Source: Chitinophagales bacterium (lineage in GTDB: Bacteria > Bacteroidota > Bacteroidia > Chitinophagales > UBA8649). From it: a stretch of 64,000 bases of DNA. The stretch's first letter is position 1. The number at the start of each line of letters is the position of its first letter. Positions 6,380 to 47,154 of this stretch are shown here, piece by piece. Position numbers and translations under genes: made by a program. The notes below the pieces were generated by a model that had not been told where the DNA came from, made no database searches, and saw only the letters and a list, made by a program, of their open reading frames with translations. The stretch is taken from positions 80,356-144,355 of the forward strand of contig JBMHCE010000033.1 of assembly GCA_049890075.1 (NCBI GenBank). Direction: 5' to 3'.

Positions 6380-6952
6380 TTATGGGGTGTTCTTGCACAC
6401 GTCTTCCACGGTGTTTACAAAATGTTGAGACTCTAGCGAACGGACCTTTGACTCGATTCCATGTACGTCATCATCTGGAGATACATCTACTACGAATTGT
6501 GCTATTACCGCCCCCTCGTCATACTCTTCCGAAACGTAGTGAATTGTGATTCCCGTTTGACTTTCATGGCTCTTGAAAACAGCCTCATGAACCCTTCGTC
6601 CATACATTCCCTTTCCGCCATACTTTGGCAAAAGGGACGGGTGTAAGTTGACCATTCGTTTGCTAAATGTGTTTACTATCTCCTTTGGAACAAGCCGAAG
6701 AAATCCTGCGAGCACGATAAAGTCAGCTTTATATTCAGCAAGAAGGGCCAAGAGCGTCGACGGTGTTTGCTCCTTCCATACCACTCGCTCGACAGGAATA
6801 GAAAATTCCTTGGCATGTTGCTGAACTCCTGATGTAGGTTGATCGGTTAACACAAGTACAACCTCATAATAACTACTTCTACATCCCTGTTGCATTAGCC
6901 GCCGTGCATTACTTCCGCCTCCAGAGGCAAAAATGGCCATTCGCTTACCCAT
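6380..6952 (-). CDS. purN: Phosphoribosylglycinamide formyltransferase
   Basis: 190 aa with AIFASGGGSNARRL, VLAGFLRLVP and NLHPSLLPKYGGKGMYG. Confidence 0.93.
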   Translation of the reverse strand: MGKRMAIFASGGGSNARRLMQQGCRSSYYEVVLVLTDQPTSGVQQHAKEFSIPVERVVWKEQTPSTLLALLAEYKADFIVLAGFLRLVPKEIVNTFSKRMVNLHPSLLPKYGGKGMYGRRVHEAVFKSHESQTGITIHYVSEEYDEGAVIAQFVVDVSPDDDVHGIESKVRSLESQHFVNTVEDVCKNTP

Positions 6953-7043: not shown

Positions 7044-7898
7044 ATGTCGAGTCAAACGGATTACACTACAGTTATCAAGCCCAACACGGGGTTGTTTAAC
7101 CTAAAAATTCGCGAGGTTTGGGCCTACAGAGATTTGGCGCTTATTCTAGCAAGAAGAGATGTCGTAGCCGTTTATAAGCAGACTATTCTTGGACCTCTTT
7201 GGTTTTTAATATCTCCCATCTTAACCGTTCTGGTATATATGTTTGTCTTTGGTTCTATTGCAGGGATCTCTACAGATGGAATGCCTCAAGCGGTGTTTTA
7301 TCTCGGCGGGATAACCTTATGGAACTATTTTTCGGCTTGTTTTACTTCGACTGCCAATACCTTTACTGCTAATGCGCGAATTTTTGGCAAAGTATATTTC
7401 CCTAGGGTTATTGCGCCCATAGCCACTGTGTTGTCCAACTTAGTCAAGCTTTCTATTCAGATGGTTCTTTTTTTAGGCGTTTTAGTCTATTATATTGTTC
7501 AAGATCAGTCAGATATCTCAATATCAAGTGAGATATACCTATTGCCCTTGCTCGTTATCATGATGGCTTGTTTGGCCTTGGGCATAGGAATAATCATATC
7601 ATCATTGACCACCAAATACAGGGACTTTAAAAACTTTATTGGATTTGGCGTTTCGCTTTTAATGTATGCAAGTCCTGTCATATACCCCATATCTGCGGTA
7701 AAAGACAAGGGCTATGGCGCCCTTCTATCTTATAATCCTATTGCCCCTATCATCGAAACGTTTCGATATATTTTTACTGGACAGGGTAGCCTTGATTGGC
7801 ATGGCCTAATGATAAGTGGTATATCCACGTTAACCATATTGTTTTTAGGACTTATCTTATTTAATAGAGTGGAGCGAACCTTCATGGATACCGTGTAA
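7044..7898 (+). CDS. wzm: ABC-2 type polysaccharide export permease (Wzm/TagG-like)
   Basis: 284 aa with about 6 TM segments. The N-terminus has the typical REVWAYRDLALILARRDVVAVYKQTILGPLWFLISP and the gene is followed by a Wzt-type ATPase. The symbol is used generically. Confidence 0.85.
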   Translation: MSSQTDYTTVIKPNTGLFNLKIREVWAYRDLALILARRDVVAVYKQTILGPLWFLISPILTVLVYMFVFGSIAGISTDGMPQAVFYLGGITLWNYFSACFTSTANTFTANARIFGKVYFPRVIAPIATVLSNLVKLSIQMVLFLGVLVYYIVQDQSDISISSEIYLLPLLVIMMACLALGIGIIISSLTTKYRDFKNFIGFGVSLLMYASPVIYPISAVKDKGYGALLSYNPIAPIIETFRYIFTGQGSLDWHGLMISGISTLTILFLGLILFNRVERTFMDTV

Positions 7899-7906
7899 AT
7901 GAATCT

Positions 7907-9169
7907 ATGGCCAATCCTGCAATCATAGTAGATAATATTTCCAAACGATACCGACTTGGAATGGTTGGATCCGGAACGCTACGAGAAGACCTTCTTGGTT
8001 GGTGGTATCAAATTAGGGGCAAAGAGGACCCCTATTCAAAGATCGCCGAAGTCAATAACCGGGCTCAAAAGGGCCAAAGCAATTATGTGTGGGCATTGCG
8101 AGACATCAACTTTGCTGTCCCTGAAGGAGAGGTGCTTGGTGTGATTGGAAAAAACGGGGCTGGCAAATCAACCCTACTTAAACTGCTTTCACGAGTTACA
8201 GCGCCTACAACAGGAACTATCAAGGCTCGTGGAAGAATTGCCAGCTTACTTGAAGTCGGAACGGGTTTTCACCCCGAGCTAAGTGGCCGAGATAACATTT
8301 TCTTGAATGGCGCTATTATGGGGATGCGCCATGGAGAAATAAAGAGAAAACTAGATGAAATCGTTGATTTTGCCGGAGTTGAACGCTACATTGACACGCC
8401 CGTAAAGAGATATTCTTCTGGTATGTATGTTCGACTTGCCTTTGCCGTTGCAGCACACTTGGAGCCTGAGATTTTAATCGTAGACGAGGTGCTTGCTGTG
8501 GGGGATGCAGAATTTCAAAAAAAAGCTATTGGGAAAATGAAAGACGTTTCTCATGGACAGGGTAGGACTGTGCTTTTTGTTAGTCACAATATGCTTAGCA
8601 TACAAAAATTATGCAACCGTTGCCTTCTCATGGAAAATGGGATGATCAAAAATGTGGGGAGTAGTGAAGACATCGTCAATGAATATTTTCTTGACGCAGA
8701 AGAATCAATTGAGACGAAAGAGCACCTTGGTGAGCACGGAAAAGTTACTTGTAATGTGATTGGTTCTGATGGAAAACCTGTCACCAAGTTTCCCATCATG
8801 AGTGAGATAACATTTCAAGCTACAATCTCCTCAACGCTCAACCTTCCCAAGATTGCAGTAAAAATTCAGGTAAAAAACCGTTTAAATCAAATTGTTTTTA
8901 CGCTGAATAACTATCATCTCGGCGTCGAACTAGCCCTGAAAGAAGGTAGCAATACTTTTTCAGTAAAAATTCCTGAAATAAACCTTAGCCCAGGAGAATA
9001 CTTCATCGATTTAGAGGTGGTTAATCTATTCGACCGTTCAATAGCGTTTAAGGCGTCCAAATTGTCACGCTTTGAACTATATCCTGCTGACATCTATGCC
9101 AGCGGATACCTTCCAAACAGCGCAAACATAGGAGTGATCTTAATGAAGCAAAAATGGTCGAATGATTGA
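7907..9169 (+). CDS. wzt: Polysaccharide ABC exporter ATP-binding protein with a C-terminal glycan-binding-type extension (Wzt/TagH-like)
   Basis: 420 aa with Walker A GKNGAGKST, signature YSSGMYVRL and Walker B ILIVDEVLAVGD. A ~160-aa beta-rich C-terminal extension (residues ~265-420) resembles that of Wzt proteins carrying a carbohydrate-binding domain. Confidence 0.88.
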   Translation: MANPAIIVDNISKRYRLGMVGSGTLREDLLGWWYQIRGKEDPYSKIAEVNNRAQKGQSNYVWALRDINFAVPEGEVLGVIGKNGAGKSTLLKLLSRVTAPTTGTIKARGRIASLLEVGTGFHPELSGRDNIFLNGAIMGMRHGEIKRKLDEIVDFAGVERYIDTPVKRYSSGMYVRLAFAVAAHLEPEILIVDEVLAVGDAEFQKKAIGKMKDVSHGQGRTVLFVSHNMLSIQKLCNRCLLMENGMIKNVGSSEDIVNEYFLDAEESIETKEHLGEHGKVTCNVIGSDGKPVTKFPIMSEITFQATISSTLNLPKIAVKIQVKNRLNQIVFTLNNYHLGVELALKEGSNTFSVKIPEINLSPGEYFIDLEVVNLFDRSIAFKASKLSRFELYPADIYASGYLPNSANIGVILMKQKWSND

Positions 9170-9857
9170 TAGAGAAAATCAAATACTCTATATCCATATA
9201 CCCAAAACGGGTGGCAGTAGTATTGAGCGTTACATTGCACCCAGCCATGTCAAGTTCAATTGGCAAGAACCCGACTACAATTGGCTTTATGGATGGTGTC
9301 CAAAAAACAAAATTCACCTTCAGCACGCTAGCCCAGAGGAGTTGTTACGCTATGGTTTGATTTCAGAAAAAGAGTTTCAACAGTGTGTAAAGTTTGCGGT
9401 TACTAGAAACCCCTGGGACCGTGCCATATCCGACTGGTTTTGGTTGCAAAAAGATTTGAGCGTTTCAGGCAGCCTGATGGATTTTCTTAACAAGGAGGGG
9501 GCCTTTAAAGAATACCTTCAGTTTCCTTCTATCCCCTCTTACCGAGGAGATCATTTGCGACCACAAACTGATTATATCAACGACTCTTATCCTCTTGACT
9601 ATGTGGGACGATTTGAGAACTTTCCGGAGGTTGAAAAATTTTTAGAGTCATTACCAGGTAACCGAGAGACGTTTAATCTTCATCTCAAAAAGTCTAAAAA
9701 GAGAAAACATTACTCCCAATTTTTTACTAGAAAAGAGCGCAACCTTGTTTATGAATTGTACTCATCTGATATTGAAAAATTTAACTACTATTTTGAAAAC
9801 CCCACCTCATGGATAACCAGACTAAAAGCAACGTTGGGACTTATCAAAAAGGGGTAG
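9162..9857 (+). CDS. Sulfotransferase-like protein A (Sulfotransfer_2 / carbohydrate-sulfotransferase type), cytoplasmic
   Basis: 231 aa. It has a 5'-PSB-like IHIPKTGGSSIE at residues 11-22 and a 3'-PB-like TRNPWDRAISDW. There is no signal peptide or TM. The start overlaps the wzt stop by 8 nt (ATGATTGA). Confidence 0.7.
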   Translation: MIDRENQILYIHIPKTGGSSIERYIAPSHVKFNWQEPDYNWLYGWCPKNKIHLQHASPEELLRYGLISEKEFQQCVKFAVTRNPWDRAISDWFWLQKDLSVSGSLMDFLNKEGAFKEYLQFPSIPSYRGDHLRPQTDYINDSYPLDYVGRFENFPEVEKFLESLPGNRETFNLHLKKSKKRKHYSQFFTRKERNLVYELYSSDIEKFNYYFENPTSWITRLKATLGLIKKG

Positions 9858-10822
9858 GCAACCCCCCATCCGTCGTTGGCGTTGTCGTGGTTACTTATAA
9901 TGGTAGTCACTGGATAAAGCGATGCCTTGGCTCGATAAAAAAAGATAGTATAGCCACCAGAGCCTATGTAATTGACAATGCCTCTAGTGATAATACGGTA
10001 TCCATGGTGAAAGAGAACTTCCCTTCTGCCAAACTATTTACGCTAGAAAAAAACATTGGCTTTGGACAGGCTAATAATATCGGCATGTGCCAAGCTATTT
10101 CAGATGGGTGTGACTTCATCCTTTTGCTAAATCAAGATGCATGGTTTAGCGATGGGTCGTTAAGCAACTTAATGGAAGGGTTTTTGTCGTCGGAAATCGA
10201 TGTTATCAGCCCCATTCACCTATGCGGAGAGGGCGCGAAGATTGATCGGAATTTCTTTGGTTACCTAACGCATGGCCTACAAACGAACGACACAAATAGA
10301 ATGCTATACCGCGATGCTCTTCTAGGGCAACTCAAAAAGAGCTATCCGTCAAATTTTCTAAATGCCGCTTGTTGGCTTTTTAAAAGTTCGTTAATCGAAG
10401 AAGTAGGTTTGTTTGATCCTTTTTTCTTTCATTATGGAGAAGACACCAACTACTACCAGCGCCTTCGATATTTTCAAAAATCAATGGGAGTAGTGCCCAC
10501 TTCGTTTGTTTTCCACGATAGAGAGGGACGAAGAACTTTAGATTCTCAATCAGAACCTCAGTTAATTCTTGAATTGAAAAGAAAACTCAGCGATATAAAC
10601 TTTCATCAAAGCTTTTCCACGCGATACAGGCAATATGTTAGACATTATTGCCTGCGCTCTGCATACTATCTCCTTAGAGGTAACTTTTCTGAAAGCAAAA
10701 AAAGTTGGGCGATCTTTAGAGCGCTTATTCGGCTAAAGCCCCAACTCATAATGTCGATAAATCGCAATGTGAACTTGCAATATGATTCAACCGTTTTTCT
10801 CAGTAATTATTCCAATATATAA
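9809..10822 (+). CDS. Glycosyltransferase family 2
   Basis: 337 aa with VVVVTYNGSHWIKRCLGSI..., VIDNASSDNT and a DxD-like LLLNQDAW. The start is uncertain: the ATG at 9809 overlaps the upstream gene by 49 nt, and an in-frame GTG lies downstream. Confidence 0.8.
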   Translation: MDNQTKSNVGTYQKGVGNPPSVVGVVVVTYNGSHWIKRCLGSIKKDSIATRAYVIDNASSDNTVSMVKENFPSAKLFTLEKNIGFGQANNIGMCQAISDGCDFILLLNQDAWFSDGSLSNLMEGFLSSEIDVISPIHLCGEGAKIDRNFFGYLTHGLQTNDTNRMLYRDALLGQLKKSYPSNFLNAACWLFKSSLIEEVGLFDPFFFHYGEDTNYYQRLRYFQKSMGVVPTSFVFHDREGRRTLDSQSEPQLILELKRKLSDINFHQSFSTRYRQYVRHYCLRSAYYLLRGNFSESKKSWAIFRALIRLKPQLIMSINRNVNLQYDSTVFLSNYSNI

Positions 10823-11846
10823 CCGCGTTGATTTGTTTGGGGACACACTGCAAAGTGTCATCAACCAAGAGTACGAGCATTGGGAACTCATTCTTGTCGA
10901 TGATGGGTCAAACCAAGAGAATATCAGCGTGGTTAAGGATTTAATCAAAGGTATCCCTAACACTCAATGGGTTGCGCGGCCCAAGAATATGCCCAAATCT
11001 GCCTCCTCGTGCAGAAACTATGGCGCAAGCCTTGCTAAGGGGACGTTTTTTATATTCCTAGACTCTGACGACATATTATCACCCAACGCCCTAAAAGTAA
11101 GGGCGAAGCAAATCAACAATGCTAATGCACGAAGCATCCACCTTTTTCCATCCTTTACGTTTTCTAACCAAGACCACAAACCTGATCACATTTGGAATGT
11201 GTTAGAGAAAAAAAACAGGCCCAATATCAACCGGTTTTTTGACGGAGACATACCTTGGCATACCTCGGGGACAACATGGCCAAGAGAGATTTTTCAATCC
11301 ATAAATGGTTTTTATGGCGAAGCCTTGTCAGCTCAAGATTGGGAGATCCATATTCGACTACTACTTGAAAACAATATAGAATTAGTGTATCATGAAGATC
11401 ACGTGAAATATTGGCACCACGGAGTTCGGCGAGACAACCAGCCCTCTATTGTTTCAGGGTTTAACAAGCCAGACAGGATACTCAATCGGCTTGAAACCTT
11501 TGGGCGCATAGTGGCCGAAGTTGTACATCAAAATAGAATGACTCGAGATCTTGAGGGTAGTATTATCGCATCAACCTATCGAACAGCACTCAGTGCCAAA
11601 AAGGCCGGGCTTGATTCGGCAGGCACGGAGTTGATTATTCGCACATGCAATGCGCTGAAACTTGGCTTTTTTGCATCTAAAGCGTTAGTAACGATCTACC
11701 GTGACTCCCAACACAACATTAGGTATCGTTTAATAAGAATGTTTTTCTCGAAAAAATATAACCTTGCAGACTTGCGATTTAAGCAAAACGCCACGTTGTG
11801 TCGTTTGCCATGGAAAGATTTTAAGGAAACAATGAGCAACGCTTAA
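10782..11846 (+). CDS. Glycosyltransferase family 2
   Basis: 354 aa with FSVIIPIYNRVDLFGDTLQSVINQEYEHWELILVDDGS and FLDSDD. Confidence 0.85.
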   Translation: MIQPFFSVIIPIYNRVDLFGDTLQSVINQEYEHWELILVDDGSNQENISVVKDLIKGIPNTQWVARPKNMPKSASSCRNYGASLAKGTFFIFLDSDDILSPNALKVRAKQINNANARSIHLFPSFTFSNQDHKPDHIWNVLEKKNRPNINRFFDGDIPWHTSGTTWPREIFQSINGFYGEALSAQDWEIHIRLLLENNIELVYHEDHVKYWHHGVRRDNQPSIVSGFNKPDRILNRLETFGRIVAEVVHQNRMTRDLEGSIIASTYRTALSAKKAGLDSAGTELIIRTCNALKLGFFASKALVTIYRDSQHNIRYRLIRMFFSKKYNLADLRFKQNATLCRLPWKDFKETMSNA

Positions 11847-11848
11847 GT

Positions 11849-12865
11849 ATGGCTAAAAAACCTCTTCATATCATCCTATGTCACAGCAATGCAAGTCAAA
11901 CAAGCCGATTGGCGGAGAGACTACTTGAATCAGAGTGCTTTGTTGTCTTTCATATTTGTTTAAATGCATCTCAAGCATTTCAAAAAAACCTCACAGACCG
12001 ATTTGGACATTATCACAACGTTAGTTTTTCAACCAGAGAAGATGGAAGCTGGGGAGAATTTGGAATTGTCCAAGGAACGATAAATGCCATAGCCAAAGGA
12101 GATGAAGTATATGGAAAAGACATTTCACACTTCAACCTTCTTAGTGGTCAAGACTATCCCATCAAGCCCCTATCAGAGTTCAATACATTCCTTTCATTCA
12201 ACCAAGAAAAAGACTTTATTGAGGCCTACCGTTGGTATCCAAAACTCCACGATGACGTTGAGGTTAACCATCCCTGGCGACAGAGCAAGCATCTCCAACA
12301 CCTTCGATTACAACACTACTACTATCGAGTTGGGACGAATCGTATCGCTGTACCTGAAAAATACACAGACCGCTACAGAGGTGGTTTTGTTTCACGGTTG
12401 GCAGACCTAGTGCGTTCATTGCCCAGCATGGCACTAAACAGACAACGAGCAAGAGAAGAGTGGTTTCTTTTCCAACAAACCAACCGCCATCACTTTCCCC
12501 GACCTATTCCTCCTTACCAATTTTATAATGGCAGCCAGTGGTGGACCATGAGTGCATCGAGTGCACGCTATGTACTTTCCACCTATACTTCACTCTTTAA
12601 TGACTTAACAGAACATGCTAAGTTCAGCATGTTAAGTGATGAGTTCTTTTTTCAAACCTTGTTAAAAAACAGTCCTCACTCTGAAAAGGTACAACACAAT
12701 AATCTTCGTGAGATTCAGTTTGCGTTGGATCAGCGCCAATCCAAACACCCCCGAGTTTTTCAAGAAGACAGCCTTCGCGAGCTTTTGTCATCGCAACATT
12801 TTTTTGCGAGAAAATTCAATGGTGACTGCAAAACATTAGACCTCTTGGATGAAAAACATCGATAA
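11849..12865 (+). CDS. Core-2/I-branching-type beta-1,6-N-acetylglucosaminyltransferase family protein (GT14-like)
   Basis: 338 aa with HIILCHSN..., FNLLSGQDYPIKP and GSQWWTMS. These are typical of the Branch/GT14 fold family. There is no TM anchor. Confidence 0.6.
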   Translation: MAKKPLHIILCHSNASQTSRLAERLLESECFVVFHICLNASQAFQKNLTDRFGHYHNVSFSTREDGSWGEFGIVQGTINAIAKGDEVYGKDISHFNLLSGQDYPIKPLSEFNTFLSFNQEKDFIEAYRWYPKLHDDVEVNHPWRQSKHLQHLRLQHYYYRVGTNRIAVPEKYTDRYRGGFVSRLADLVRSLPSMALNRQRAREEWFLFQQTNRHHFPRPIPPYQFYNGSQWWTMSASSARYVLSTYTSLFNDLTEHAKFSMLSDEFFFQTLLKNSPHSEKVQHNNLREIQFALDQRQSKHPRVFQEDSLRELLSSQHFFARKFNGDCKTLDLLDEKHR

Positions 12866-13931
12866 CAATCCCACAGTAAGTATTGTGATGGCGGTCTACA
12901 ATGGTGAATCGTTCATTGACGAGGCGGTCCAAAGTATGCTGAGCCAAAGTTTTCAGGACTTTGAGCTTATTATCATAGATGATGGGTCTACCGATGGCAC
13001 CCATGAGAAGCTTTTGAACTACAGCGACCATCGAATTATACTTGAACGTAACCCCACGAATCAACGATTGATTGCATCCTTGAACAGGGGGCTTGGACTG
13101 GCTAAAGGAAAATATATTGTGCGAATGGACGCCGACGATGTATCGCTCCATCTTCGGCTACAAACCCTCGTAGACTATCTCAACCAAAACCCAAGGTGTG
13201 TCTTGCTTGGAAGCGCTCACGAAAACTTCGGAGATGGGCGCGAACCCAGAACAATTCGATATCAAGAAAACGACAAGGCTATACGATATCACATGTTGTT
13301 GAATACGTATCTGCAACATCCCACCGTTGCCATACGAGCTTCCACACTAAAACAACACAACCTTCAATATGACGAGCGATTTGTTCATGTCGAGGACCAT
13401 TGGATGTTCTACGAGCTATCCCGTCTTGGAGAAGTGCACATCATAAATACGCCACTTCTGCGATACAGAATTCATGCGCAAAACATTTCCGTTGTTTACT
13501 CTGAAGACCAGCTACAAACACAAAACAACATCCGACAACGGATTGCCGAAGATTACGGCTTACAGTTTAAGGGCAAAGACTCCTTTATCCATTACTTGTC
13601 TTTTATGCTTGTATTAAAACCACAGGCACACCAAACCTATACCATTCAACTTCCTACAACCAGCAGAGGTTTCTTAGAGTTATTTGATAATTTACACGTT
13701 CTGGTGCTGTCGATGAAAAATTGTGAGGTGGAAAAAAACATAACAAGAGGCCTCTTAACAATTCTTCCCCTTCTAACGGGATTAAGTCGTGCTGATTTTA
13801 AGGGGTTATTAAGGCACCCACTGGTGGCTATGTCTATAAAAAACCCGTTGGGTTTGTTTAAGCTACATATGAAGAATCTCCTCGGAATTTCATACCAATA
13901 CAATAAAATTTTAGACCAACAAAAATCATGA
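12849..13931 (+). CDS. Glycosyltransferase family 2
   Basis: 360 aa with VSIVMAVYNGESFIDEAVQSMLSQSFQDFELIIIDDGSTDGT and RMDADD. Confidence 0.88.
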   Translation: MKNIDNNPTVSIVMAVYNGESFIDEAVQSMLSQSFQDFELIIIDDGSTDGTHEKLLNYSDHRIILERNPTNQRLIASLNRGLGLAKGKYIVRMDADDVSLHLRLQTLVDYLNQNPRCVLLGSAHENFGDGREPRTIRYQENDKAIRYHMLLNTYLQHPTVAIRASTLKQHNLQYDERFVHVEDHWMFYELSRLGEVHIINTPLLRYRIHAQNISVVYSEDQLQTQNNIRQRIAEDYGLQFKGKDSFIHYLSFMLVLKPQAHQTYTIQLPTTSRGFLELFDNLHVLVLSMKNCEVEKNITRGLLTILPLLTGLSRADFKGLLRHPLVAMSIKNPLGLFKLHMKNLLGISYQYNKILDQQKS

Positions 13932-14944
13932 TACACCGAATTCGGGGAAGATTAAATAGATATTGGGAGCGCCACAAACACCAACGTGGAGTTCAAAAAG
14001 TTAAACAGCACAGCACCTTGATTCAATGGCAGGCGCCAATCAAAGGGGAGGGCTCTGTGATTTGCCTTGTAAAAGATGGAATGGAACATCTTGACTCCTT
14101 TGTAAAACACTACCAAGGGTTAGGATTTAGACACTTTGTCTTTCTAGATAATGGGTCGAGTGATAAGACCATTGATTATCTAAAGTCTATAGAATGCACT
14201 GTGTACCAATGCCGCCTCAATTATGAAAAATACATTTATGCCATGAAGCAATTTATGGTGCACAGCCTCGGTGAAAATCACTGGTCACTCTATGTCGATG
14301 TTGATGAGCTTTGGCTATATCCTGGAATGAAGACCCTTTCCTTAAAAGACTTCCTTGAATATCTAGATCATCATTCATTTAATGCATGCCAAGGGCATAT
14401 GTTAGATATGTTTGGTGAAACAATCAGTTTTAACAATCAACCGCTTAACGAAGTATCCTTACAACAAGCCTATCCATACTTTACCCTAAGTGGATTGATA
14501 CAATCTCCCCTTCAGCGCTACTTTATTCAATCTGACGGCAGAAGATTCCAGTATCATGGAGGGGTAAACAAACACTTCTTCGACTTAGATAAAATCTATT
14601 TGTCCAAAATTCCACTCATAAAGTGGAATCGGAAAATGATTGTCCACGAGAGTTCTCATATTTCAAAATATATCCAACTCGCGGACGTAAGCTGCGCTCT
14701 TTTGCACTATAAATTCACCAACACGTTTTTTCAGAAGGCGCAGAAAATTGTAAACGAAAAGCGTGACGCCTGGGCTGTTGAATACTATGGGCAAATCTTA
14801 GATGCCCTTGATAATAAAAACACAAGCCTTGTTGATGAAAGTACCTGTCGGTTTGAAAGTGCCCAGCAATTGGTTCAACTAGGGTTTATAGATGTAAGTA
14901 GTGCCTTTTTATCTTTCGAAAGCCAAATGAACATTAATGATTAA
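13928..14944 (+). CDS. GT-A fold glycosyltransferase (Glyco_tranf_2_4 / GT92-like)
   Basis: 338 aa with ICLVKDGMEHLDSFVKHYQGLGFRHFVFLDNGSSDKTIDYL followed by YVDVDELW (DxD-type). It has a 4-nt ATGA overlap with the upstream gene. Confidence 0.6.
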   Translation: MIHRIRGRLNRYWERHKHQRGVQKVKQHSTLIQWQAPIKGEGSVICLVKDGMEHLDSFVKHYQGLGFRHFVFLDNGSSDKTIDYLKSIECTVYQCRLNYEKYIYAMKQFMVHSLGENHWSLYVDVDELWLYPGMKTLSLKDFLEYLDHHSFNACQGHMLDMFGETISFNNQPLNEVSLQQAYPYFTLSGLIQSPLQRYFIQSDGRRFQYHGGVNKHFFDLDKIYLSKIPLIKWNRKMIVHESSHISKYIQLADVSCALLHYKFTNTFFQKAQKIVNEKRDAWAVEYYGQILDALDNKNTSLVDESTCRFESAQQLVQLGFIDVSSAFLSFESQMNIND

Positions 14945-15929
14945 AGTCTCTGTCATAATGTCTGTTTTCAACAGCCTCCCTCTGCTTAACGAGAGCATTG
15001 AAAGCCTGCAACAACAGGACGTTAGAAATTTTGAAGTCGTCATCGTAGACGATGGGTCAGATGACGGAAGTAGAGAGTTTTTAGCCAATTTGCAAGAGAA
15101 AGACCGTCGTTTTGTTGTTCTATTCAACGAAGTAAATATCGGATTGACCAAGTCCTTAAATCGTGCATTAGAAAAAGCGCAGGGAAAATATATTGCAAGA
15201 ATGGATGATGATGATATTGCTCTCCCATCTCGCTTAAAAAAACAAAGCGATTTTTTAGACAAGAATCATAATGTCGGAGTTGTTGGAACATATGCCGAAC
15301 TCTTCGGGGGGCAATCTGGATTCAGAATGCATGACACGCAGGACGAAATTTTAAAATGTAAAACCCTTTTTAGTTGTCAATTTTGCCATCCTTCCACGAT
15401 GATAAGAAGAGATGTTTTGACAAAAAACAACATAACCTATGACGAAAGCTTTGTAACCGCTCAGGACTACAAACTTTGGACTGATCTGTTGACTGTGACG
15501 GATTTTGCCACTCTGCCCGAAGTTTTGCTTAAATATCGAATACATGCAAGACAGATAAGTAGCGTAAAAAGAGAGCAGCAGGTTGAAAATACGTATCGAA
15601 TCTATGGCGAGATATTCTCTAGGCTTGGGATTGAGTATGACATGTCAACTCTTACAACCCACCAAGATCTTGCATCGTTTTCCCACCTATCTATGGGTGT
15701 AAATGACCTAAAAAAAACAAGCGATCATCTGTTATCCATTATCAAAGCAAATCAATCGGCTCAAGTGTTTCCACAAAAAGAACTTGAGAGGTTTCTTGGA
15801 GAGATGTTTTATAATCTAGTAAAGGTCTCTAAAGTAAGCCGAAGCCAAAAAGTTGCCATGTATTATCAAAATGGTCACCAGGTATATTTTGAGCCCCGGC
15901 TCACAAAACTAAAGCTGTATTTTTCCTAA
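14937..15929 (+). CDS. Glycosyltransferase family 2
   Basis: 330 aa with VSVIMSVFNSLPLLNESIESLQQQDVRNFEVVIVDDGSDDGS and RMDDDD. Confidence 0.88.
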   Translation: MIKVSVIMSVFNSLPLLNESIESLQQQDVRNFEVVIVDDGSDDGSREFLANLQEKDRRFVVLFNEVNIGLTKSLNRALEKAQGKYIARMDDDDIALPSRLKKQSDFLDKNHNVGVVGTYAELFGGQSGFRMHDTQDEILKCKTLFSCQFCHPSTMIRRDVLTKNNITYDESFVTAQDYKLWTDLLTVTDFATLPEVLLKYRIHARQISSVKREQQVENTYRIYGEIFSRLGIEYDMSTLTTHQDLASFSHLSMGVNDLKKTSDHLLSIIKANQSAQVFPQKELERFLGEMFYNLVKVSKVSRSQKVAMYYQNGHQVYFEPRLTKLKLYFS

Positions 15930-15936
15930 GGTTCCC

Positions 15937-16707
15937 ATGAGCAATCCAAAGAAAAATATTATTCTTCTCCATGTTCCCAAAGCCGGTGGAACCACGTTGC
16001 GGCAGATATTTCTTGAACAATATGACGGATCAACAAGCCGTGACGAAATCTACATCATTAACCGAACGCGCGAGGCAAAATATTTCAAGGATATCGACCC
16101 CAAAATGCGCGCAAAATATAGACTCCTTTTAGGACACCTTCCCTTTGGTATACACGAGTATTTATCCGGTGAATACCAATATGTTTCCATGGTGCGCAAC
16201 CCTATTGATCGAGCGGTATCTGACTATGCCTATTCTAAATCCTTTAAAAAGCACGAGGCCTATTCAATGATTCATGACCAAAAGATGAATCTTGTGGAAT
16301 ATGTTTCCAACTATGCCTCTTCTTGGCATTCAAATGGACAAACTAAACTATTCGCTGGAGCCCAGTACCTCCACCAAGAGTGTACCACAGAAACTTTTAA
16401 CAGAGCTATTGAAAACATTGAGCGCTACTTTTTATTTGTTGGTATTCTAGAAAAGTTTGACCTGTCGCTTACTTTGCTAAAAAACCGCTTGTCCTGGAGT
16501 CAGCCTTATTATAAAAAGAAAAACAAAACCCTTATTCGCTACAAGGTGTCAGATAAAGAAAAAGCGATCATCTCAGAGTTAAACCAATACGACTTAAAGC
16601 TCTGTGCCTACTGTGAAGAAAAATTTTTAGGTGTAGGAAACAAAGAAAGGCTGGCCACCAACATGTTTTCTACCCTTAATGGAATAAGAAACGCATTGCG
16701 CCACTAA
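15937..16707 (+). CDS. Sulfotransferase-like protein B (Sulfotransfer_2 type), cytoplasmic
   Basis: 256 aa with LLHVPKAGGTTLRQIF at residues 10-25 and MVRNPIDRAVSDY. The motif spacing matches protein A (9162-9857). There is no signal peptide or TM. Confidence 0.7.
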   Translation: MSNPKKNIILLHVPKAGGTTLRQIFLEQYDGSTSRDEIYIINRTREAKYFKDIDPKMRAKYRLLLGHLPFGIHEYLSGEYQYVSMVRNPIDRAVSDYAYSKSFKKHEAYSMIHDQKMNLVEYVSNYASSWHSNGQTKLFAGAQYLHQECTTETFNRAIENIERYFLFVGILEKFDLSLTLLKNRLSWSQPYYKKKNKTLIRYKVSDKEKAIISELNQYDLKLCAYCEEKFLGVGNKERLATNMFSTLNGIRNALRH

Positions 16708-16795
16708 CCATCAAATCGGATACAATGGATAAAAGAATAATGCAGGTCGATTTTTTGGGAATAAGCGCAATACCCTTTGTAACAAGTAACGTGAT

Positions 16796-17692
16796 ATGAA
16801 CCCTTTGTTTTCTATTGTTTTACCAGCCTATAACCGAGAGGACAGGATAGGACAGGCCATTCAAAGTGTACTTGACCAAACATATTCTAACTGGGAGCTA
16901 ATCATTGTCGACGATGGCTCAACAGATAACACCAAAGAGGTATGTCTGCAATACCAAGATCCAAGAATATCCTATGTCTACCAGGACAATGCAGAGCGTA
17001 GCGCTGCACGCAACAAGGGAATAGCACTTTCTCAAGGAGTTTACATCGGATTTTTGGATTCTGACGATGTATACACGCAGTCTTTTTTAGAAGAAGTGGA
17101 CCGTGTAATTCAAAAACTTGAGGACCCAAACCTTGTTTTCACGGGTCTTTCAACAAAGAAGGAGGGGCAACTTAATCACCAGCCCATTCCTGCACTTGAT
17201 GGTTGGGATTACAAAGATTACCTGTTAATTCATTCTATGGCTACCCCAAGGGCCGTTATACACAAGGAGTGCTTTTCAAAGGCCTTGTTTCCTGAAGACA
17301 TTTCGATTGGAGAGGACCGGTATCTGTGGGTTCGTTTAGCATATTATTATCCTGTAGCCTTTTGTCCCAAAGCTATCGTCGTTCAGCGTGACTTAGGCGA
17401 TCGATCCATAGACGGCCTTGAGGCCAAAATAGAGAACTATATCTCTCTTTGTAAAACCATAAAAACCAGAGAAGGAACATCGCTCTCACCCCGGGCTATT
17501 TCCGTTGCTAAGGCCCGCGGATTGTTGGCTATTGCTCGTTGGCATATGCACAACAAAAGCAGAGTAAAAAGTATCCTGTATGTTCTGCGTAGCTTATGGG
17601 TAGCTCCTTTTGATCAGGGCAAATTCAAGGCAAACCTTCTTTTACGATTGCTTTTTATGTTTCCCCTTGACTCGATTCTAACGCTATTCTAG
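16796..17692 (+). CDS. Glycosyltransferase family 2
   Basis: 298 aa with FSIVLPAYNREDRIGQAIQSVLDQTYSNWELIIVDDGSTDNT and FLDSDD. Confidence 0.88.
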   Translation: MNPLFSIVLPAYNREDRIGQAIQSVLDQTYSNWELIIVDDGSTDNTKEVCLQYQDPRISYVYQDNAERSAARNKGIALSQGVYIGFLDSDDVYTQSFLEEVDRVIQKLEDPNLVFTGLSTKKEGQLNHQPIPALDGWDYKDYLLIHSMATPRAVIHKECFSKALFPEDISIGEDRYLWVRLAYYYPVAFCPKAIVVQRDLGDRSIDGLEAKIENYISLCKTIKTREGTSLSPRAISVAKARGLLAIARWHMHNKSRVKSILYVLRSLWVAPFDQGKFKANLLLRLLFMFPLDSILTLF

Positions 17693-17734
17693 AATTGCAT
17701 CTGATAATCGTGTAGATTAGGTCTAACAAATCAT

Positions 17735-18676
17735 ATGAATCCCCTGCAAACGATACAAAACATCATTAAGGCAAAAGGTTATAACAAGAAAGCCCGCTCC
17801 CTGGGCCCTTCAAAAAAGATTGTTTTGTCCAGCACTCCAAGGGGTGGATCTACGTGGGCATATGAAGTACTTTTAGGAGAAAAGGGCATCGGTGTTTGGG
17901 AACCACTACACCCAGTTTGGCTTAAAAAAAATAGTATTCAACCCAACGGGAATCATGATCTTTTTGCCCCAAAGGACCTCTCGCTTCCCAAGCTTCAAAC
18001 CTACCTTGAACAGGTTTTGTATAATAGTAGTGTAGATAAACAAAATCGCTTTTACCCAAAAAAAGAGCACTCCTTAAAGCGCATACAATCTTGTGATTAT
18101 ATGGTTTTTAAGTTTTGTCGGCTCGGGCCGCTTTTGCCTTGGTTTCTTCATAGATTTCCCTTTCGTGTATGGCATATTGTTCGAAATCCCTTCGCTGTTG
18201 TATCCTCGCAGTTAAGGCACCCCGCATGGGATTTTATACATACGCAAAAGGCATTCAGAGATAATAAAAACTCTTTTTTTCCTACATATTATGAATCGTA
18301 TTATCACATCACAAATGCGTTGCATCACCCCGAAGAGTTTCTGGCGGCCAAATGGTGTTTAGATTTGATTCCCGTTCTTGATGAGGCACAGAACGATAAA
18401 CTTTATCTATGTTGCTATAAGGACTTAGTGGTAGATGGGGTTGAACACTTTCGTCGTGCCTTCAGCTTTTATGGCCTATCATTCGACTACTGCAATAAGG
18501 AGCAAATAGACAAACCCTCAATGACTACTCGCCAAGGGAGTAATATCCTAAACGCTCAAAGCCCCCTAACGACATATAAAAAGTACCTTAGTCAGGAGCA
18601 AATCGACAGGATTCAGAACGTGCTTGATTCTTTTGGACTCAGTTCATGGGAAGAAAGAATTCAAAAGGATCGTTGA
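17735..18676 (+). CDS. Sulfotransferase-like protein C (different subclass; P-loop-like PAPS site)
   Basis: 313 aa with SSTPRGGSTWAYEVL (5'-PSB-like, compare the PKSGTT/PRSGST type) and HIVRNPFAVVSSQLRHP (3'-PB-like). No TM. The family call is motif-only. Confidence 0.5.
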   Translation: MNPLQTIQNIIKAKGYNKKARSLGPSKKIVLSSTPRGGSTWAYEVLLGEKGIGVWEPLHPVWLKKNSIQPNGNHDLFAPKDLSLPKLQTYLEQVLYNSSVDKQNRFYPKKEHSLKRIQSCDYMVFKFCRLGPLLPWFLHRFPFRVWHIVRNPFAVVSSQLRHPAWDFIHTQKAFRDNKNSFFPTYYESYYHITNALHHPEEFLAAKWCLDLIPVLDEAQNDKLYLCCYKDLVVDGVEHFRRAFSFYGLSFDYCNKEQIDKPSMTTRQGSNILNAQSPLTTYKKYLSQEQIDRIQNVLDSFGLSSWEERIQKDR

Positions 18677-18697
18677 CAAGTGATAAATGGTTAAACT

Positions 18698-19831
18698 ATG
18701 CGCATTATTCATATTATACCCAGCTTAGCAATTGGTGGTGCTGAAAAGATGTGTATAGATATATGTAATACCCTCTTCGATCAGGGGCACGATGTATTAC
18801 TTGTCCGACTAAGCACTATACAGGAATTTAATGAAAAGAGCTTCCGCTTTTCTACTCGAGTCATTCAAGAACATTCCACGCTTCGATTTTTGCGTGGGAT
18901 GATTAATGTTTCCAACGAGTGGAAGAACTTAGTTGAAGAGTTTGACCCCGATATAATTCATAGTCATTTGTTCGAGGCAGAAATTTTTTCTAAAAGCGTA
19001 CTTCGCCAAAAGACTGCATACTTCACTCATTGCCACGATAATATGCGCCAATTTAAACGAAGAGTCAATATATTCCGGCTGTTAAACAAAGAAGAATTTG
19101 CTCGCCTTTATGAGAGATACTTTTTACTCAATACCTACCGGTTGCTTGGGCAAAACCATTTTATCTGTATTTCAGACAACAACGCTACATATTTCCAAAA
19201 AAACCTATCAAAACATCTACGTATTGTTAAGCTACCCAATGCCATAAATGTCCAGGATTTTGAGAAAAAACGCACCAAACTTGACCCCAAAGAAACGCTG
19301 AGTCTTGTTTCGGTTGGTTCACTAACTCCATTGAAAAACCACTCTTATCTAGTGAAGGTGCTTTATGAGTTAAATAAAAATCGACTCCGCGCCAAACTTG
19401 ATCTTGTAGGAGGTGGTCCACAATCGGGTGACTTACAAAAGATGGCACACAATTTCTCGCTTCACGAGACCATATCCATCCATGGAAAACAGACTGAGGT
19501 GTCTTCCTTTTATCAAAAGAACACCTTGTATATACATAGCGCAAAATCCGAAGGGTTCGGGCTTACACAAATAGAAGCAATGGCAGCGGGGTTGCCTGTT
19601 ATCGCACTAGATGCTGGTGGCAATAGGGACATTGTAAAAGACGGGGTGAATGGGTGCCTTCTGCCACAAGACACAAAGCCCGAAGAGTTTGCAGCAAAAA
19701 TTATTGCTGTCTGGGAGGATAAAGAACTGTTAACGTCTCTGCAAAAGGGAGCCATAGAAACTGCCACCCAATATGATATCGAGCCCTATTGCAAAAAACT
19801 AGTTAAACTTTACGAAGATGCTTTACGCTAG
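18698..19831 (+). CDS. Glycosyltransferase family 4 (GT-B, group 1)
   Basis: 377 aa with an N-terminal IIPSLAIGGAEKM and a C-terminal E-x7-E region SEGFGLTQIEAMAAGLPVIA. Confidence 0.88.
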   Translation: MRIIHIIPSLAIGGAEKMCIDICNTLFDQGHDVLLVRLSTIQEFNEKSFRFSTRVIQEHSTLRFLRGMINVSNEWKNLVEEFDPDIIHSHLFEAEIFSKSVLRQKTAYFTHCHDNMRQFKRRVNIFRLLNKEEFARLYERYFLLNTYRLLGQNHFICISDNNATYFQKNLSKHLRIVKLPNAINVQDFEKKRTKLDPKETLSLVSVGSLTPLKNHSYLVKVLYELNKNRLRAKLDLVGGGPQSGDLQKMAHNFSLHETISIHGKQTEVSSFYQKNTLYIHSAKSEGFGLTQIEAMAAGLPVIALDAGGNRDIVKDGVNGCLLPQDTKPEEFAAKIIAVWEDKELLTSLQKGAIETATQYDIEPYCKKLVKLYEDALR

Positions 19832-21015
19832 GTGAACTGCTTTAAGAACGCCATGTAGTTCTTTTCCGCGTTAAACTTATTCTGCCACGTGTTCTTCGCA
19901 TTTTCTGCCATAGCATATAGACGGCCTTCATCCAGTGCCTGAATCAAATGAGCTACAGCCTCAACGCTTAGGTCATCGTCATGTAAGAGCCCATTATTTC
20001 CATCTTCAATTATCTCAGAAACTCCGCCTACATTGGTACCCACACAAGGAATGCCAACACTCATGGCCTCCATCATAGAAACCGGAAGACCCTCTGTGGT
20101 GCTTTGGTTGATAAAGAGGGTATTATTAGCATTTTCGCTTAACCACTGGTGAACGGTTTCGTTGGATTGGCGACCATGAAAACTATATCCTTCCACCCCT
20201 GACCTATCCAACCAACCTTTTACTTCTGCTTCCAGTGGGCCATCTCCAAAGTGGTTCCATCTCCATGTGGAGTCGCTCTGATAAAGCACAGCAAAGATTG
20301 CTGCGATTCGCTGAACGCGCTTTAACTCTATACATGATGATATAGACACTAACGTTTTAGTGCCTTGGCGGTTTTTTGCTTCTGCTTTTTTCGGCGGTGG
20401 AGTACCGAGATAAAAAAGGTCTAGATTGGTAAACCCCTGGTCTCGCAATGCTTCTGCTCCGTGCTTTGAAATTGGACAAACCACTAATTCCGAGCTAGCC
20501 AGATAGGACCTATATGGCAAATATTTATGAGGATGGCGTACTGGATAAACGTCCCATCCATGGGCTCTGCTTATCGCAAAGGCCCCGTCTCTTTGGGCAA
20601 GAAATGCTGCGGCCATCGCCCCCTCGTCAAGCCAATAGCTGTAGTATGTAATCTCACCTGCAATATCCTTTGTTGATGTTTTGATTTGCGTGAGCCGTTT
20701 GTTGATGCCCTGCCAAGATCGGTAGGCAATTTTTGATTTAGACCAATGACCCATAAGGCGGAAGCACTCTTGGAACAAGGTGCGCCAGCCTATTGAGTGA
20801 TGCCTTGAGCCATAGGGTGTCCCAATAACACAGTTTGATGGCATTATTCTGGGACTGCCCGGAGTGTTTTTTGGTAAGACAATAATCTGGTCAAATGCTT
20901 CTGACAATATGGAAATCTCGTGTTCAATGAAGGTCTCTTGCCGGCCAAATGGATACTCTGCTGTAATAAACACGAGACTACGTTGAGAAGCTAAAGAATT
21001 CTTTGAGGGATTCAT
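19828..21015 (-). CDS. Glycosyltransferase family 4 (GT-B)
   Basis: 395 aa with TEGLPVSMMEAMSVGIPCVGTNVGGVSEII. It is the only minus-strand gene in this part of the locus and is convergent with the previous GT4, overlapping it by 4 nt. Confidence 0.85.
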   Translation of the reverse strand: MNPSKNSLASQRSLVFITAEYPFGRQETFIEHEISILSEAFDQIIVLPKNTPGSPRIMPSNCVIGTPYGSRHHSIGWRTLFQECFRLMGHWSKSKIAYRSWQGINKRLTQIKTSTKDIAGEITYYSYWLDEGAMAAAFLAQRDGAFAISRAHGWDVYPVRHPHKYLPYRSYLASSELVVCPISKHGAEALRDQGFTNLDLFYLGTPPPKKAEAKNRQGTKTLVSISSCIELKRVQRIAAIFAVLYQSDSTWRWNHFGDGPLEAEVKGWLDRSGVEGYSFHGRQSNETVHQWLSENANNTLFINQSTTEGLPVSMMEAMSVGIPCVGTNVGGVSEIIEDGNNGLLHDDDLSVEAVAHLIQALDEGRLYAMAENAKNTWQNKFNAEKNYMAFLKQFT

Positions 21016-21055
21016 GACTACCTTTAAAGTAGGTACAATTCCGCATTAGACCGCC

Positions 21056-24183: not shown

Positions 24184-24207
24184 TACTTTACAGAAGAATA
24201 CATCGCT

Positions 24208-25194: not shown

Positions 25195-25203
25195 CGAGCT
25201 GAC

Positions 25204-28011: not shown

Positions 28012-28026
28012 TTTCTCTTACCTCTG

Positions 28027-28593: not shown

Positions 28594-28600
28594 ATCAACT

Positions 28601-34948: not shown

Positions 34949-34963
34949 CCAAAACCCCTACCA

Positions 34964-37417: not shown

Positions 37418-37437
37418 TTCTACTTAGATTTAACCTT

Positions 37438-38517
37438 ATGGAGCAGCAATTCTATTGGTTCGTTTTATTCGTAGCAATATTCCTTTTTGGGTACACGACG
37501 CATGCGTTGTTTCTTCGCTTCAGTAGGGGACTTGGTGTTCGGCAACCATCAGCTCTTGGACAAGAGCGCTGGAGTGCGGAGGTCAAACCATCTGTTGGCG
37601 GACTTACCTTTTTTATTTGCTTTAGTGTCTCCATAAGCCTTTTACCCATTGAGGGTATCAATATGCTTAGTGAGCTCAAACGAACTTCATTTACCGCTGC
37701 CTGCTGTCTAGGGTTTTTGTTAGGCTTGGCAGATGACACGTATGACACGGTTCCTATTGTGAAGTTTTTGGGTCAAGTTCTGTGTGGGACGATTTTGTGC
37801 TTGGGGGGTATTGTAATACAATTCAGCGGAAATGTGTTTGTCGATTATGCATTAACCACCTTCTGGGTTATTGCCATAATGAATTCCATCAATATGTTGG
37901 ATAATATGGATGCTATAACCACTTCTGTTTCCATATCTATTGTGCTTACTGCCATTGGAATGGCCCTTCTTATTGTCTCACCTAGCCTTTGGGTCTATCC
38001 ATGTATTATTGGCGTCTTAGCAAGCCTTATTGCCTTTTTACCCTATAATTGGAACCCTGCTAAAATCTATATGGGCGATACGGGCTCCCAATTCCTTGGT
38101 GTCTTCTTGGCTGGCTTGGGTGTTGAGTTATTTTGGAACCACCGAGTTGATTATGGAGGAATCGTTCAAGTACAACAGTTTATGATTCCTATTCTTGTGT
38201 TTGCTGTACCTATAATGGATACAATAACGGTGTTCGTAAGACGCCTTCTGCGCAGGACATCACCTTTTGTTGGGGGTAGAGACCATTTGGCTCACCACTT
38301 GGTTTATTGTGGGTTTTCAGAGCAACAAGTCGCTATAATCCTGTTTTTCCTTTCCATTGTGTTTGGAGTCCTTTCCCTTAGTTTTTTCTTCGAGCAATAC
38401 CCATTTAACCTGTCTCTTATAGGATGGTCTCTTGTACTGCTAAACATATTCTTAGTTGTCTTCTTTGTTTTACAGCTTTACTATAACCGAGGGGCTGAAA
38501 AAAAGGGTCAACCCTAA
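37438..38517 (+). CDS. Polyprenyl-phosphate N-acetylhexosamine-1-phosphate transferase (MraY/WecA family, Glycos_transf_4), initiating enzyme
   Basis: 359 aa with about 10-11 TM segments. Motifs are GLADDTYD, NSINMLDNMDAI (equivalent to the NxxNxxDGxDG loop) and YMGDTGSQFLG. Confidence 0.8.
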   Translation: MEQQFYWFVLFVAIFLFGYTTHALFLRFSRGLGVRQPSALGQERWSAEVKPSVGGLTFFICFSVSISLLPIEGINMLSELKRTSFTAACCLGFLLGLADDTYDTVPIVKFLGQVLCGTILCLGGIVIQFSGNVFVDYALTTFWVIAIMNSINMLDNMDAITTSVSISIVLTAIGMALLIVSPSLWVYPCIIGVLASLIAFLPYNWNPAKIYMGDTGSQFLGVFLAGLGVELFWNHRVDYGGIVQVQQFMIPILVFAVPIMDTITVFVRRLLRRTSPFVGGRDHLAHHLVYCGFSEQQVAIILFFLSIVFGVLSLSFFFEQYPFNLSLIGWSLVLLNIFLVVFFVLQLYYNRGAEKKGQP

Positions 38518-39000: not shown

Positions 39001-39019
39001 CTTTCTTAACACTTTTCAG

Positions 39020-47147: not shown

Positions 47148-47154
47148 TACTTCT

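Follow-up and report, generated by a model that had tools for sequence, protein, structure and literature searches.

Does a compact gene block from a marine member of the Bacteroidota encode a polysaccharide that is sulfated before it leaves the cytoplasm? The block lies in a 64,000-nucleotide stretch of contig JBMHCE010000033.1 from a Chitinophagales bacterium (assembly GCA_049890075.1, positions 80,356 to 144,355), hereafter the window. Positions 7044-19831 of the window hold an ATP-binding cassette (ABC) transporter gene pair of the Wzm/Wzt type, glycosyltransferase genes, and three genes for sulfotransferase-like proteins, here called ST-A, ST-B, and ST-C. The original prediction, made from the DNA letters without database searches, had proposed a sulfated polysaccharide pathway for this block. 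Our analysis makes it likely that the operon makes a surface heteropolysaccharide that is exported by Wzm/Wzt and sulfated in the cytoplasm by three sulfotransferases dependent on 3'-phosphoadenosine-5'-phosphosulfate (PAPS).

The open reading frame (ORF) map placed 13 genes on one strand within this 12.8-kb operon, spaced from a 49-bp overlap (-49) to an 88-bp gap (+88), with ten genes separating wzt from a terminal GT4 glycosyltransferase gene. All of the ORF coordinates in the original prediction were present in the map, and Pfam confirmed the composition it had given for the ten packed genes: six of GT2 type, one GT14, and three sulfotransferase-like. The operon, on the plus strand, opens with wzm (7044..7898; ABC-2 permease, ABC2_membrane, E 4e-19) and wzt (7907..9169; ATPase with a C-terminal carbohydrate-binding domain, ABC_tran and Wzt_C), followed by ST-A (9162..9857; 231 aa; Sulfotransfer_2, PF03567), whose start overlaps the wzt stop by 8 bp. 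Two GT2 genes (9809..10822, Glycos_transf_2, E 1e-15; 10782..11846, Glycos_transf_2, E 2e-24), a GT14 gene of the Core-2/I-branching type (11849..12865; Branch, PF02485, E 3e-14), a further GT2 gene (12849..13931; Glycos_transf_2, E 2e-32), a GT2-like gene (13928..14944; Glyco_tranf_2_4, PF13704, E 1e-17), and another GT2 gene (14937..15929; Glycos_transf_2, E 2e-32) lead to ST-B (15937..16707; 256 aa; Sulfotransfer_2, Sulfotransfer_1, and Gal-3-O_sulfotr). The GT2 gene GT2e (16796..17692; Glycos_transf_2, E 1.5e-34) lies in a strain-variable 3' cassette, and it is followed by ST-C (17735..18676; 313 aa; Sulfotransfer_1) and by GT4a, the GT4 gene that ends the operon (18698..19831; Glycos_transf_1, E 5e-36, and Glyco_transf_4). 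The upstream flank comprises purN, purH, and mreBCD on the opposite strand, and the downstream flank is a convergent GT4 gene (19828-21015). The G+C content of the operon (0.39-0.42) was slightly lower than that of the housekeeping flanks (0.43-0.455), which is the usual pattern in surface-glycan loci. Scans of the operon for sigma-70 promoters and intrinsic terminators gave chance-level results only, with consensus patterns that are unsuited to Bacteroidota.

Each of the three sulfotransferase-like proteins scored above the Pfam gathering cutoff, which is 22 bits for the sulfotransferase models (PF03567, PF00685). ST-A matched PF03567 with 49.4 bits, ST-C matched Sulfotransfer_1 (PF00685) with 26.6 bits, and ST-B matched Sulfotransfer_2 (34.1 bits), Sulfotransfer_1 (PF00685; 28.1 bits), and Gal-3-O_sulfotr (25.7 bits). 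Their motifs read as first quoted, namely HIPKTGGSS and RNPWDRAISD in ST-A, HVPKAGGTT and RNPIDRAVSD in ST-B, and TPRGGST and RNPFAVVSS in ST-C. The proposal that the motifs of ST-A and ST-B match the 5'-phosphosulfate-binding (5'-PSB) and 3'-phosphate-binding (3'-PB) signatures for PAPS was borne out by family alignments, in which the key positions of all three proteins were invariant. Among 33 relatives of ST-A, aligned down to 23% identity, these were I11, H12, I13, P14, K15, G18, and S20 of the 5'-phosphosulfate loop, H55, and R82, P84, and S90 of the 3'-phosphate motif. The 27 aligned ST-B members shared H12, P14, G18, G66, H67, R87, P89, R92, and S95, with K15 and T20 conserved in at least 90%. 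The invariant positions in 19 ST-C sequences were R36, G37, G38, T40, W41, E56, P57, L58, R150, P152, S157, S158, and Q159; the 5'-PSB motif of this protein, PRGGSTW, carries Arg at the canonical Lys position.

Database and structural comparisons agreed with the motifs. PF03567 was annotated in 88 of the 89 database relatives of ST-A. Sulfotransferases accounted for 39 of the 41 top Protein Data Bank (PDB) fold matches to its AlphaFold model (pLDDT 92.8), among them SULT7A1, an Alicyclobacillus sulfotransferase, HS6ST, NDST, and 3-OST, and the other two were the related retinol dehydratase. The ST-C model (pLDDT 85.7) had 84 PDB matches at E <=1e-3, the best at 8e-6; 45 of the top 50 were sulfotransferases (SULTs, TPST, and CurM/OLS domains), mostly bound to 3'-phosphoadenosine-5'-phosphate, and five were retinol dehydratase, which has the same fold. 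The ST-C family profile matched cytosolic SULTs (E 1e-8). For ST-B, whose family numbers 6988 representative clusters at E <=1e-3, the profile matched the heparan sulfate (HS) sulfotransferases HS6ST (HS6ST3; E 3.8e-20) and HS2ST (HS2ST1; E 2e-14). Single-sequence searches against PDB chains gave nothing significant for ST-A or ST-C and only SULT4A1 (E 0.035) for ST-B, and NCBIfam had no model for any of the three. The profile and motif evidence for all three proteins, joined by the fold models of ST-A and ST-C, which match almost only sulfotransferases, places them in the PAPS-dependent sulfotransferase superfamily. The profile-HMM and structure searches, which the original prediction had named as able to refute it, came out in its favour for all three. 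ST-A is of the Sulfotransfer_2 type, ST-B of the HS 2-O/6-O-sulfotransferase type, and ST-C of the cytosolic SULT/CurM type, and sulfate transfer by each is predicted from family membership and intact cofactor-binding motifs.

Some relatives of ST-B (P0192, P0197, P0201, and P0203) were large and carried 2-5 tandem sulfotransferase domains, P0203 having 1250 aa and five matched stretches. A C-terminal amphipathic membrane helix like that of WbdD was considered for ST-A and dropped, with a hydrophobic moment of only 0.23.

No hydrophobic 19-residue segment was found in ST-A, ST-B, or ST-C, whose maximum Kyte-Doolittle means over 19 residues were 0.36, 1.15, and 0.89, respectively, compared with 2.2-2.8 for the Wzm helices. 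This agrees with the earlier claim that the three proteins have no membrane anchor and are cytoplasmic. Sulfation would take place before export, since PAPS is a cytoplasmic compound and all three enzymes are soluble.

The exporter and the glycan-building enzymes were characterized in the same way. Wzm has five hydrophobic helices and matches the NCBIfam Wzm/RfbD and KpsM models below their cutoffs. Wzt is the longest protein of the operon (420 aa, all others being <=377 aa); its Wzt_C domain (residues ~283-371) scored 34.7 bits against a cutoff of 30.4, and its best PDB match was the full-length Wzt of Aquifex aeolicus (8dku/7k2t; E 1.7e-69), with an alignment that spans residues 33-370 and thus includes part of the carbohydrate-binding domain (CBD). 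The permease and ATPase are encoded together with cytoplasmic glycosyltransferases and without Wzx or Wzy in the operon, which is the arrangement of a Wzm/Wzt-type pathway. Besides Wzm, only GT2e passed the hydrophobicity threshold, with one borderline C-terminal segment (1.61). Pfam detected no methyltransferase, kinase, or 3-deoxy-D-manno-octulosonic acid (Kdo) transferase domain in the operon, and the three sulfotransferases are its sole enzymes other than glycosyltransferases. The only candidate initiating enzyme within the window is a WecA/MraY-family polyprenyl-phosphate sugar-phosphate transferase with eleven hydrophobic helices (37438..38517, plus strand; Pfam Glycos_transf_4, E 3e-25; NCBIfam ECA_wecA, E 4e-21, below cutoff), and the operon may make use of it. 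The eight glycosyltransferases, many for such a pathway, and the absence of nucleotide-sugar synthesis genes suggest a complex heteropolymer built from common UDP-sugars.

ABC-transporter-dependent pathways assemble the entire chain on undecaprenyl phosphate, on the cytoplasmic side, before Wzm/Wzt export it (PMC11231755, PMC9445017, PMC3482155). The operon would accordingly be expected to act on a polyprenyl-phosphate-linked primer, possibly made by the WecA-like enzyme, which the eight soluble glycosyltransferases (six GT2, one GT14, and one GT4) would extend at the cytoplasmic face of the inner membrane. ST-A, ST-B, and ST-C, from three subfamilies, would form sulfate esters on hydroxyls of the chain as it grows, in a cytoplasmic, PAPS-dependent O-sulfation. 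The finished anionic chain would then be recognized by the CBD of Wzt and exported through Wzm/Wzt, ending as an O-antigen-like or capsule-like surface glycan. We infer that the acceptor is the operon's own glycan, and our picture of the sulfated sugars and positions, the lipid carrier, and the final attachment is of the same predicted kind.

The block recurred in several seawater metagenome assemblies, including TARA. The window and a 123.8-kb contig of the metagenome-assembled genome (MAG) GCA_049889375.1 were 99.995% identical over the 19.9 kb compared, and the exact Wzt and MreB of the window were also encoded on a 2.03-Mb contig. Proteins >=90% identical to those of the window came from MAGs carrying Saprospirales, Chitinophagales, or Bacteroidota labels, and just upstream there is a PorP/SprF gene. 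A TARA strain (L004) was 97% identical to the window from wzm through ST-B but differed in the 3' cassette: window positions 16735-19573 (GT2e/ST-C/GT4a) were replaced by L004 positions 14901-17268, with 97% identity on both sides. The replacement holds a 139-aa ORF, a GT2 gene 66% identical to GT2e at the nucleotide level, and a different GT4 gene, and L004 has no ST-C.

A sister species (L010-L012) retained ST-C at 79% identity, and its downstream locus was ~73% identical at the nucleotide level. There, wzt is followed directly by the GT14 gene, without ST-A and the first two GT2 genes, and Wzt is only 48% identical, with a C-terminal domain undetectable by tblastn, whereas flanking genes are 73-79% identical. 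The sister species nevertheless carries three sulfotransferases, namely an ST-B-like protein (42% identity), an extra 256-aa Sulfotransfer_1 protein, and ST-C, plus an MBOAT gene. The occurrence of the block at 97-100% identity in several independent metagenome assemblies, and of three sulfotransferases in the sister species as well, indicates that three sulfotransferases among 13 genes are not a product of chance.

L004 also contains a 4.2-kb insertion (L004 490-4661) between purH and purN (window ~6450-6495), with two FdtA-like genes, a hexapeptide acetyltransferase gene, a DegT aminotransferase gene, and a GT2 gene; it looks like a dTDP-3-acetamido-3,6-dideoxyhexose pathway.

Linkage between ST-A homologs and wzt was assessed from gene maps and from tblastn searches of the window Wzm and Wzt against 80 loci, of which the 24 best genome loci are L013-L036. 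Close ST-A homologs (33-47% identity, the best match among the GTDB representative genomes scanned being 47%) occurred in marine Bacteroidota, both cultured and uncultured, among them Winogradskyella, Psychroserpens, Pustulibacterium, Psychroflexus, Salinimicrobium, Christiangramia, Tamlana, and Saprospiraceae. Winogradskyella ursingii, W. poriferorum, Pustulibacterium marinum, Psychroflexus gondwanensis, and P. lacisalsi are cultured species with the wzm-wzt-ST-A module. The homolog immediately followed wzt, often with an overlap of the wzt stop, in L013, L017, L020 (the same Pustulibacterium locus as L007), L021, L023, L026, and L032, and also in L008 and L009; in L015, a second copy follows wzt. 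It was located 0.6-2.2 kb from wzt in L022, L028, L029, and L034, within the wzt cluster at 4-8 kb in L014 and L016, and between wzm and wzt in L025. Five homologs (L018, L019, L024, L027, and L030) were near no wzt, three (L033, L035, and L036) followed a different, weakly similar ABC ATPase gene, and the L031 contig was too short for a call. Since the adjacency is found in many loci and the downstream glycosyltransferase sets vary among them, it represents a recurring module and not a peculiarity of the window. Relatives of all three sulfotransferases were located in glycosyltransferase-rich loci in four phyla. One such locus, from the cyanobacterium Elainella, encodes an ST-C homolog (28% identity) and two more sulfotransferases, and a neighbour of this homolog weakly matched the Stf0 family model.

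Several points weigh against a sulfated product. The absence of PAPS-supply genes from the window, claimed in the original prediction, was upheld: Pfam found no cysDN, cysC, or cysQ (ATP-sulfurylase, adenosine 5'-phosphosulfate [APS] kinase, CysQ) domain in the window ORFs >=150 aa, apart from three left out of the scan (2372-2890; 2877-3722, MreC; and 47098-47577), or in called genes up to 10 kb beyond each end. The co-occurrence of PAPS and sulfotransferase genes in one cluster is considered a hallmark of sulfated polysaccharide loci by the authors of a Vibrio study (PMC11641403). A sulfotransferase-domain gene also does not guarantee a bulk-sulfated polymer: in the ABC-transporter O-antigen cluster of Aeromonas salmonicida A450, ORF19 encodes a 216-aa sulfotransferase-domain protein immediately after wzt, and no sulfate was found in the O-antigen (PMC4483657). 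This cluster further differs in having a WbbB-like multidomain protein. The fold matches of ST-A were weak (best E 1.5e-3, TM-scores 0.4-0.5), and its family profile matched solved structures only marginally (E ~1e-3), although all of these were sulfotransferases. Finally, the organism is an uncultured marine member of the Bacteroidota (Saprospirales/Chitinophagales) known from MAGs and metagenomes only, and its glycan is predicted from genes.

The definition of a sulfated-polysaccharide cluster given by Kokoulin and co-workers, with cysD/cysN/cysC and cysQ in the cluster, does not cover the operon. This weakens its membership in that class but not the functional prediction, because PAPS can come in trans, and a supply from elsewhere in the genome would serve. 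A distant ST-A relative in Ectopseudomonas guguanensis is encoded within a glycan locus, at a distance of 0.8 kb from an APS kinase gene, which provides independent support for PAPS use by the ST-A family. The only sulfur-related gene seen near the locus encodes a TauE/SafE-family (sulfite/organosulfonate exporter-like) membrane protein (L093 18576-19322), ~6.7 kb upstream of the window start.

Comparison with known systems showed that the rarity implied by the original prediction was overstated, as wzm-wzt-sulfotransferase modules are common in marine Bacteroidota and ABC-dependent sulfated capsules have been published (PMC11766843, PMC11641403). The sulfated capsule of Cobetia marina KMM 1449 is encoded by a cluster with a Kps ABC transporter, one sulfotransferase, and cysNC/cysD/cysQ (PMC11766843), and that of Vibrio sp. 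KMM 8419 by a region that combines cysNDC and a Kps ABC transporter with three sulfotransferase genes, of which one lies in the adjoining O-antigen part (PMC11641403). The original prediction was aware of no characterized Wzm/Wzt pathway with three dedicated sulfotransferases, and none was found in the literature searched, but the Vibrio Kps region already has that number. Like these loci, the operon combines an ABC transporter, cytoplasmic glycosyltransferases, and sulfotransferase genes in one region, with strain-variable glycosyltransferase and sulfotransferase content. The Cobetia and Vibrio loci have KpsMT(DE)-type transporters, kpsS/C lipid priming, cysD/cysN/cysC/cysQ in the cluster, and products proven to be sulfated, whereas the operon has Wzm and a CBD-bearing Wzt, belongs to Bacteroidota, has no PAPS genes nearby, and has a product predicted from its genes. 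The operon thus differs in its Wzt-CBD transporter, its phylum, its three sulfotransferase subfamilies, the lack of PAPS genes in cis, and its conserved wzt-sulfotransferase module.

Two of the three sulfotransferases are relatives of animal glycosaminoglycan sulfotransferases. The ST-B profile aligned with HS 2-O/6-O-sulfotransferases over the PSB, PB, and C-terminal regions, and ST-A belongs to the same Pfam family; the animal enzymes, however, are luminal type-II membrane proteins of the Golgi, whereas ST-A and ST-B are anchorless, cytoplasmic, and of low identity to them. The operon also resembles cyanobacterial loci for sulfated exopolysaccharide (EPS) in having several sulfotransferases among glycosyltransferases, although the Elainella fragment shows no transporter. 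The synechan/xss system of Synechocystis is a Wzx/Wzy-dependent sulfated EPS system. This synechan locus and the sulfated lipopolysaccharide and K-antigens of rhizobia (LpsS, KpsS) are further precedents for sulfated bacterial glycans.

The position of ST-A next to wzt raises the alternative, in our judgement rather unlikely, that sulfate is a chain-end cap. At least one sulfotransferase, most likely ST-A, would sulfate only the non-reducing terminal sugar and stop elongation, and the Wzt CBD would read the sulfate as its signal for export. The wzm-wzt-sulfotransferase trio would, with the same low probability, be a portable module used across marine Bacteroidota with different glycosyltransferase sets, and ST-B and ST-C may still decorate the repeat units. 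The operon shares a Wzt CBD, cytoplasmic assembly, and a modifying enzyme beside wzt with capped O-antigen systems (E. coli O9a, Klebsiella O3/O4/O7/O12, and A. aeolicus), and its Wzt_C is homologous to the cap-binding CBD of A. aeolicus Wzt, which binds a 3-O-methyl sugar cap (PMC9445017). Characterized systems with a Wzt CBD carry a terminal cap and need it for export; methyl, methyl-phosphate, and Kdo are the known caps, and the enzymes are attached to a coiled-coil ruler (PMC11231755, PMC9445017). Unlike these systems, the operon encodes neither a long protein nor a methyltransferase, kinase, or Kdo-transferase, and its only modifying enzymes are the three sulfotransferases. A cap would then be either a sugar added by a glycosyltransferase or a sulfate. 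ST-A homologs come directly after wzt in at least nine other Bacteroidota loci and lie within ~2 kb of it in several more, with differing glycosyltransferase sets, and this tight and widespread linkage makes ST-A the obvious candidate for adding a sulfate cap. In E. coli O9a, the terminator gene wbdD follows wzt as well. The divergent Wzt of the sister species without ST-A, with its unrecognizable CBD, fits a cap, and so does the A. salmonicida locus, where a sulfotransferase-domain gene after wzt and a repeat unit without sulfate are what a substoichiometric cap would be expected to look like (PMC4483657).

Other observations lower the probability of a sulfate cap. The literature searched, to which the census of Mann, Kimber, and Whitfield (Glycobiology 2019) did not belong, contained no sulfate cap and no sulfotransferase terminator. 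All characterized terminators have a coiled-coil ruler (PMC11231755), and there is no obvious room for one in operon proteins that, besides Wzt, are <=377 aa; the ST-A and ST-C models contained no long helix, in a search for a ruler that covered domain content, protein lengths, and these two models. One of the eight glycosyltransferases could equally provide the cap in the form of a sugar, and several ST-A-linked loci carry NeuB and CMP-sugar synthetase genes, a possible source of a nonulosonic-acid cap. Furthermore, five close ST-A homologs are near no wzt, and the CBDs of ST-A-linked Wzt proteins are only ~26-29% identical and have no conserved basic pocket. The comparison of these CBDs for a sulfate-compatible basic pocket was itself uninformative, the only shared motif (GDF..GK.P) being present also in the sister species, which has no ST-A. 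Our default is that the three sulfotransferases simply decorate the chain, and the cap is rated lower.

We consider it very unlikely that the sulfotransferases act elsewhere, on a glycolipid, lipid A/core, a protein-linked glycan, or a small molecule, with their position in the operon reflecting co-regulation only. The placement of ST-C in the SULT/CurM branch, whose solved members use small molecules, peptides, and polyketide intermediates, speaks for such an acceptor, and Bacteroidota have a general protein O-glycosylation system. However, the three sulfotransferase genes are interleaved with glycosyltransferase genes in one operon, their relatives are embedded in the glycosyltransferase-rich loci of four phyla described above, the closest solved relatives of ST-B are polysaccharide O-sulfotransferases, and ST-C is swapped together with neighbouring glycosyltransferases as a single cassette.

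Least probable of all, by a shade, is that at least one of the proteins is inactive or performs different chemistry and the glycan carries little or no sulfate: the Arg of ST-C in place of the canonical PSB Lys (PRGGSTW), the lack of PAPS genes in the window and 10 kb on each side, and the undetected sulfate of A. salmonicida (PMC4483657) would fit, but within each family the PSB/PB residues and a candidate catalytic His or Glu do not vary down to 22-30% identity, which indicates that the active site is under purifying selection. The active mycobacterial Stf0 has a PSB with Arg (RSGST).

The operon is followed by a second, separate polysaccharide locus (window 19828-38517), which is ~73% identical at the nucleotide level in the sister species and contains several GT4 genes and genes for an epimerase, a GFO/IDH/MocA oxidoreductase, and a hexapeptide acyltransferase. 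It also encodes two asparagine-synthase-like amidotransferases of the XrtA/PEP-CTERM type (22357-24183 and 31095-32966), a small exosortase-like protein (28027-28617, minus strand; XrtX/XrtY-like, below cutoff), a 10-helix membrane protein (29702-31144), Wza (34130-34948), a Wzc-like tyrosine kinase (34964-37417), and, last, the WecA-like transferase described above. The exosortase-like ORF overlaps a 434-aa GT1-like ORF (28409-29713, plus strand) by ~200 bp; the true start of the latter is probably further downstream, as the glycosyltransferase of the sister species was called with 372 aa and with a start beyond the exosortase gene. A tRNA-Leu(GAG) gene (38917-39001, plus strand) stands where the 31-kb glycan region ends, 400 bp past the WecA-like gene, and tRNA genes are typical island boundaries. 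Beyond it, a 1050-aa ORF (43567-46719, plus strand) without a Pfam or NCBIfam match has hydrophobic helices at its N-terminus and, after them, a very acidic region rich in Glu/Gln/Leu, probably a coiled coil; it sits in the stretch of lowest G+C in the window (0.35-0.38), with strong positive GC skew. A 439-aa ORF (49447-50766, plus strand) between mnmG and an ABC ATPase gene likewise matched no Pfam or NCBIfam model.

If the product of the operon is sulfated, abundant particle-associated marine Bacteroidota would be makers of sulfated glycans, beyond degrading those of algae. Sulfated glycans resist ordinary glycosidases, and such a product would add to the ocean's pool of slowly degraded sulfated carbohydrate and would alter cell-surface charge and phage recognition. 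The strain-level swap of a sulfotransferase cassette points to a sulfation pattern that varies as a surface trait under selection. The small, soluble sulfotransferases, all three of them bacterial kin of animal Golgi enzymes, could serve as catalysts for defined sulfated oligosaccharides, and the conserved adjacency of wzt and a sulfotransferase gene makes sulfate as an O-antigen export cap a question that can be tested in cultured flavobacteria.

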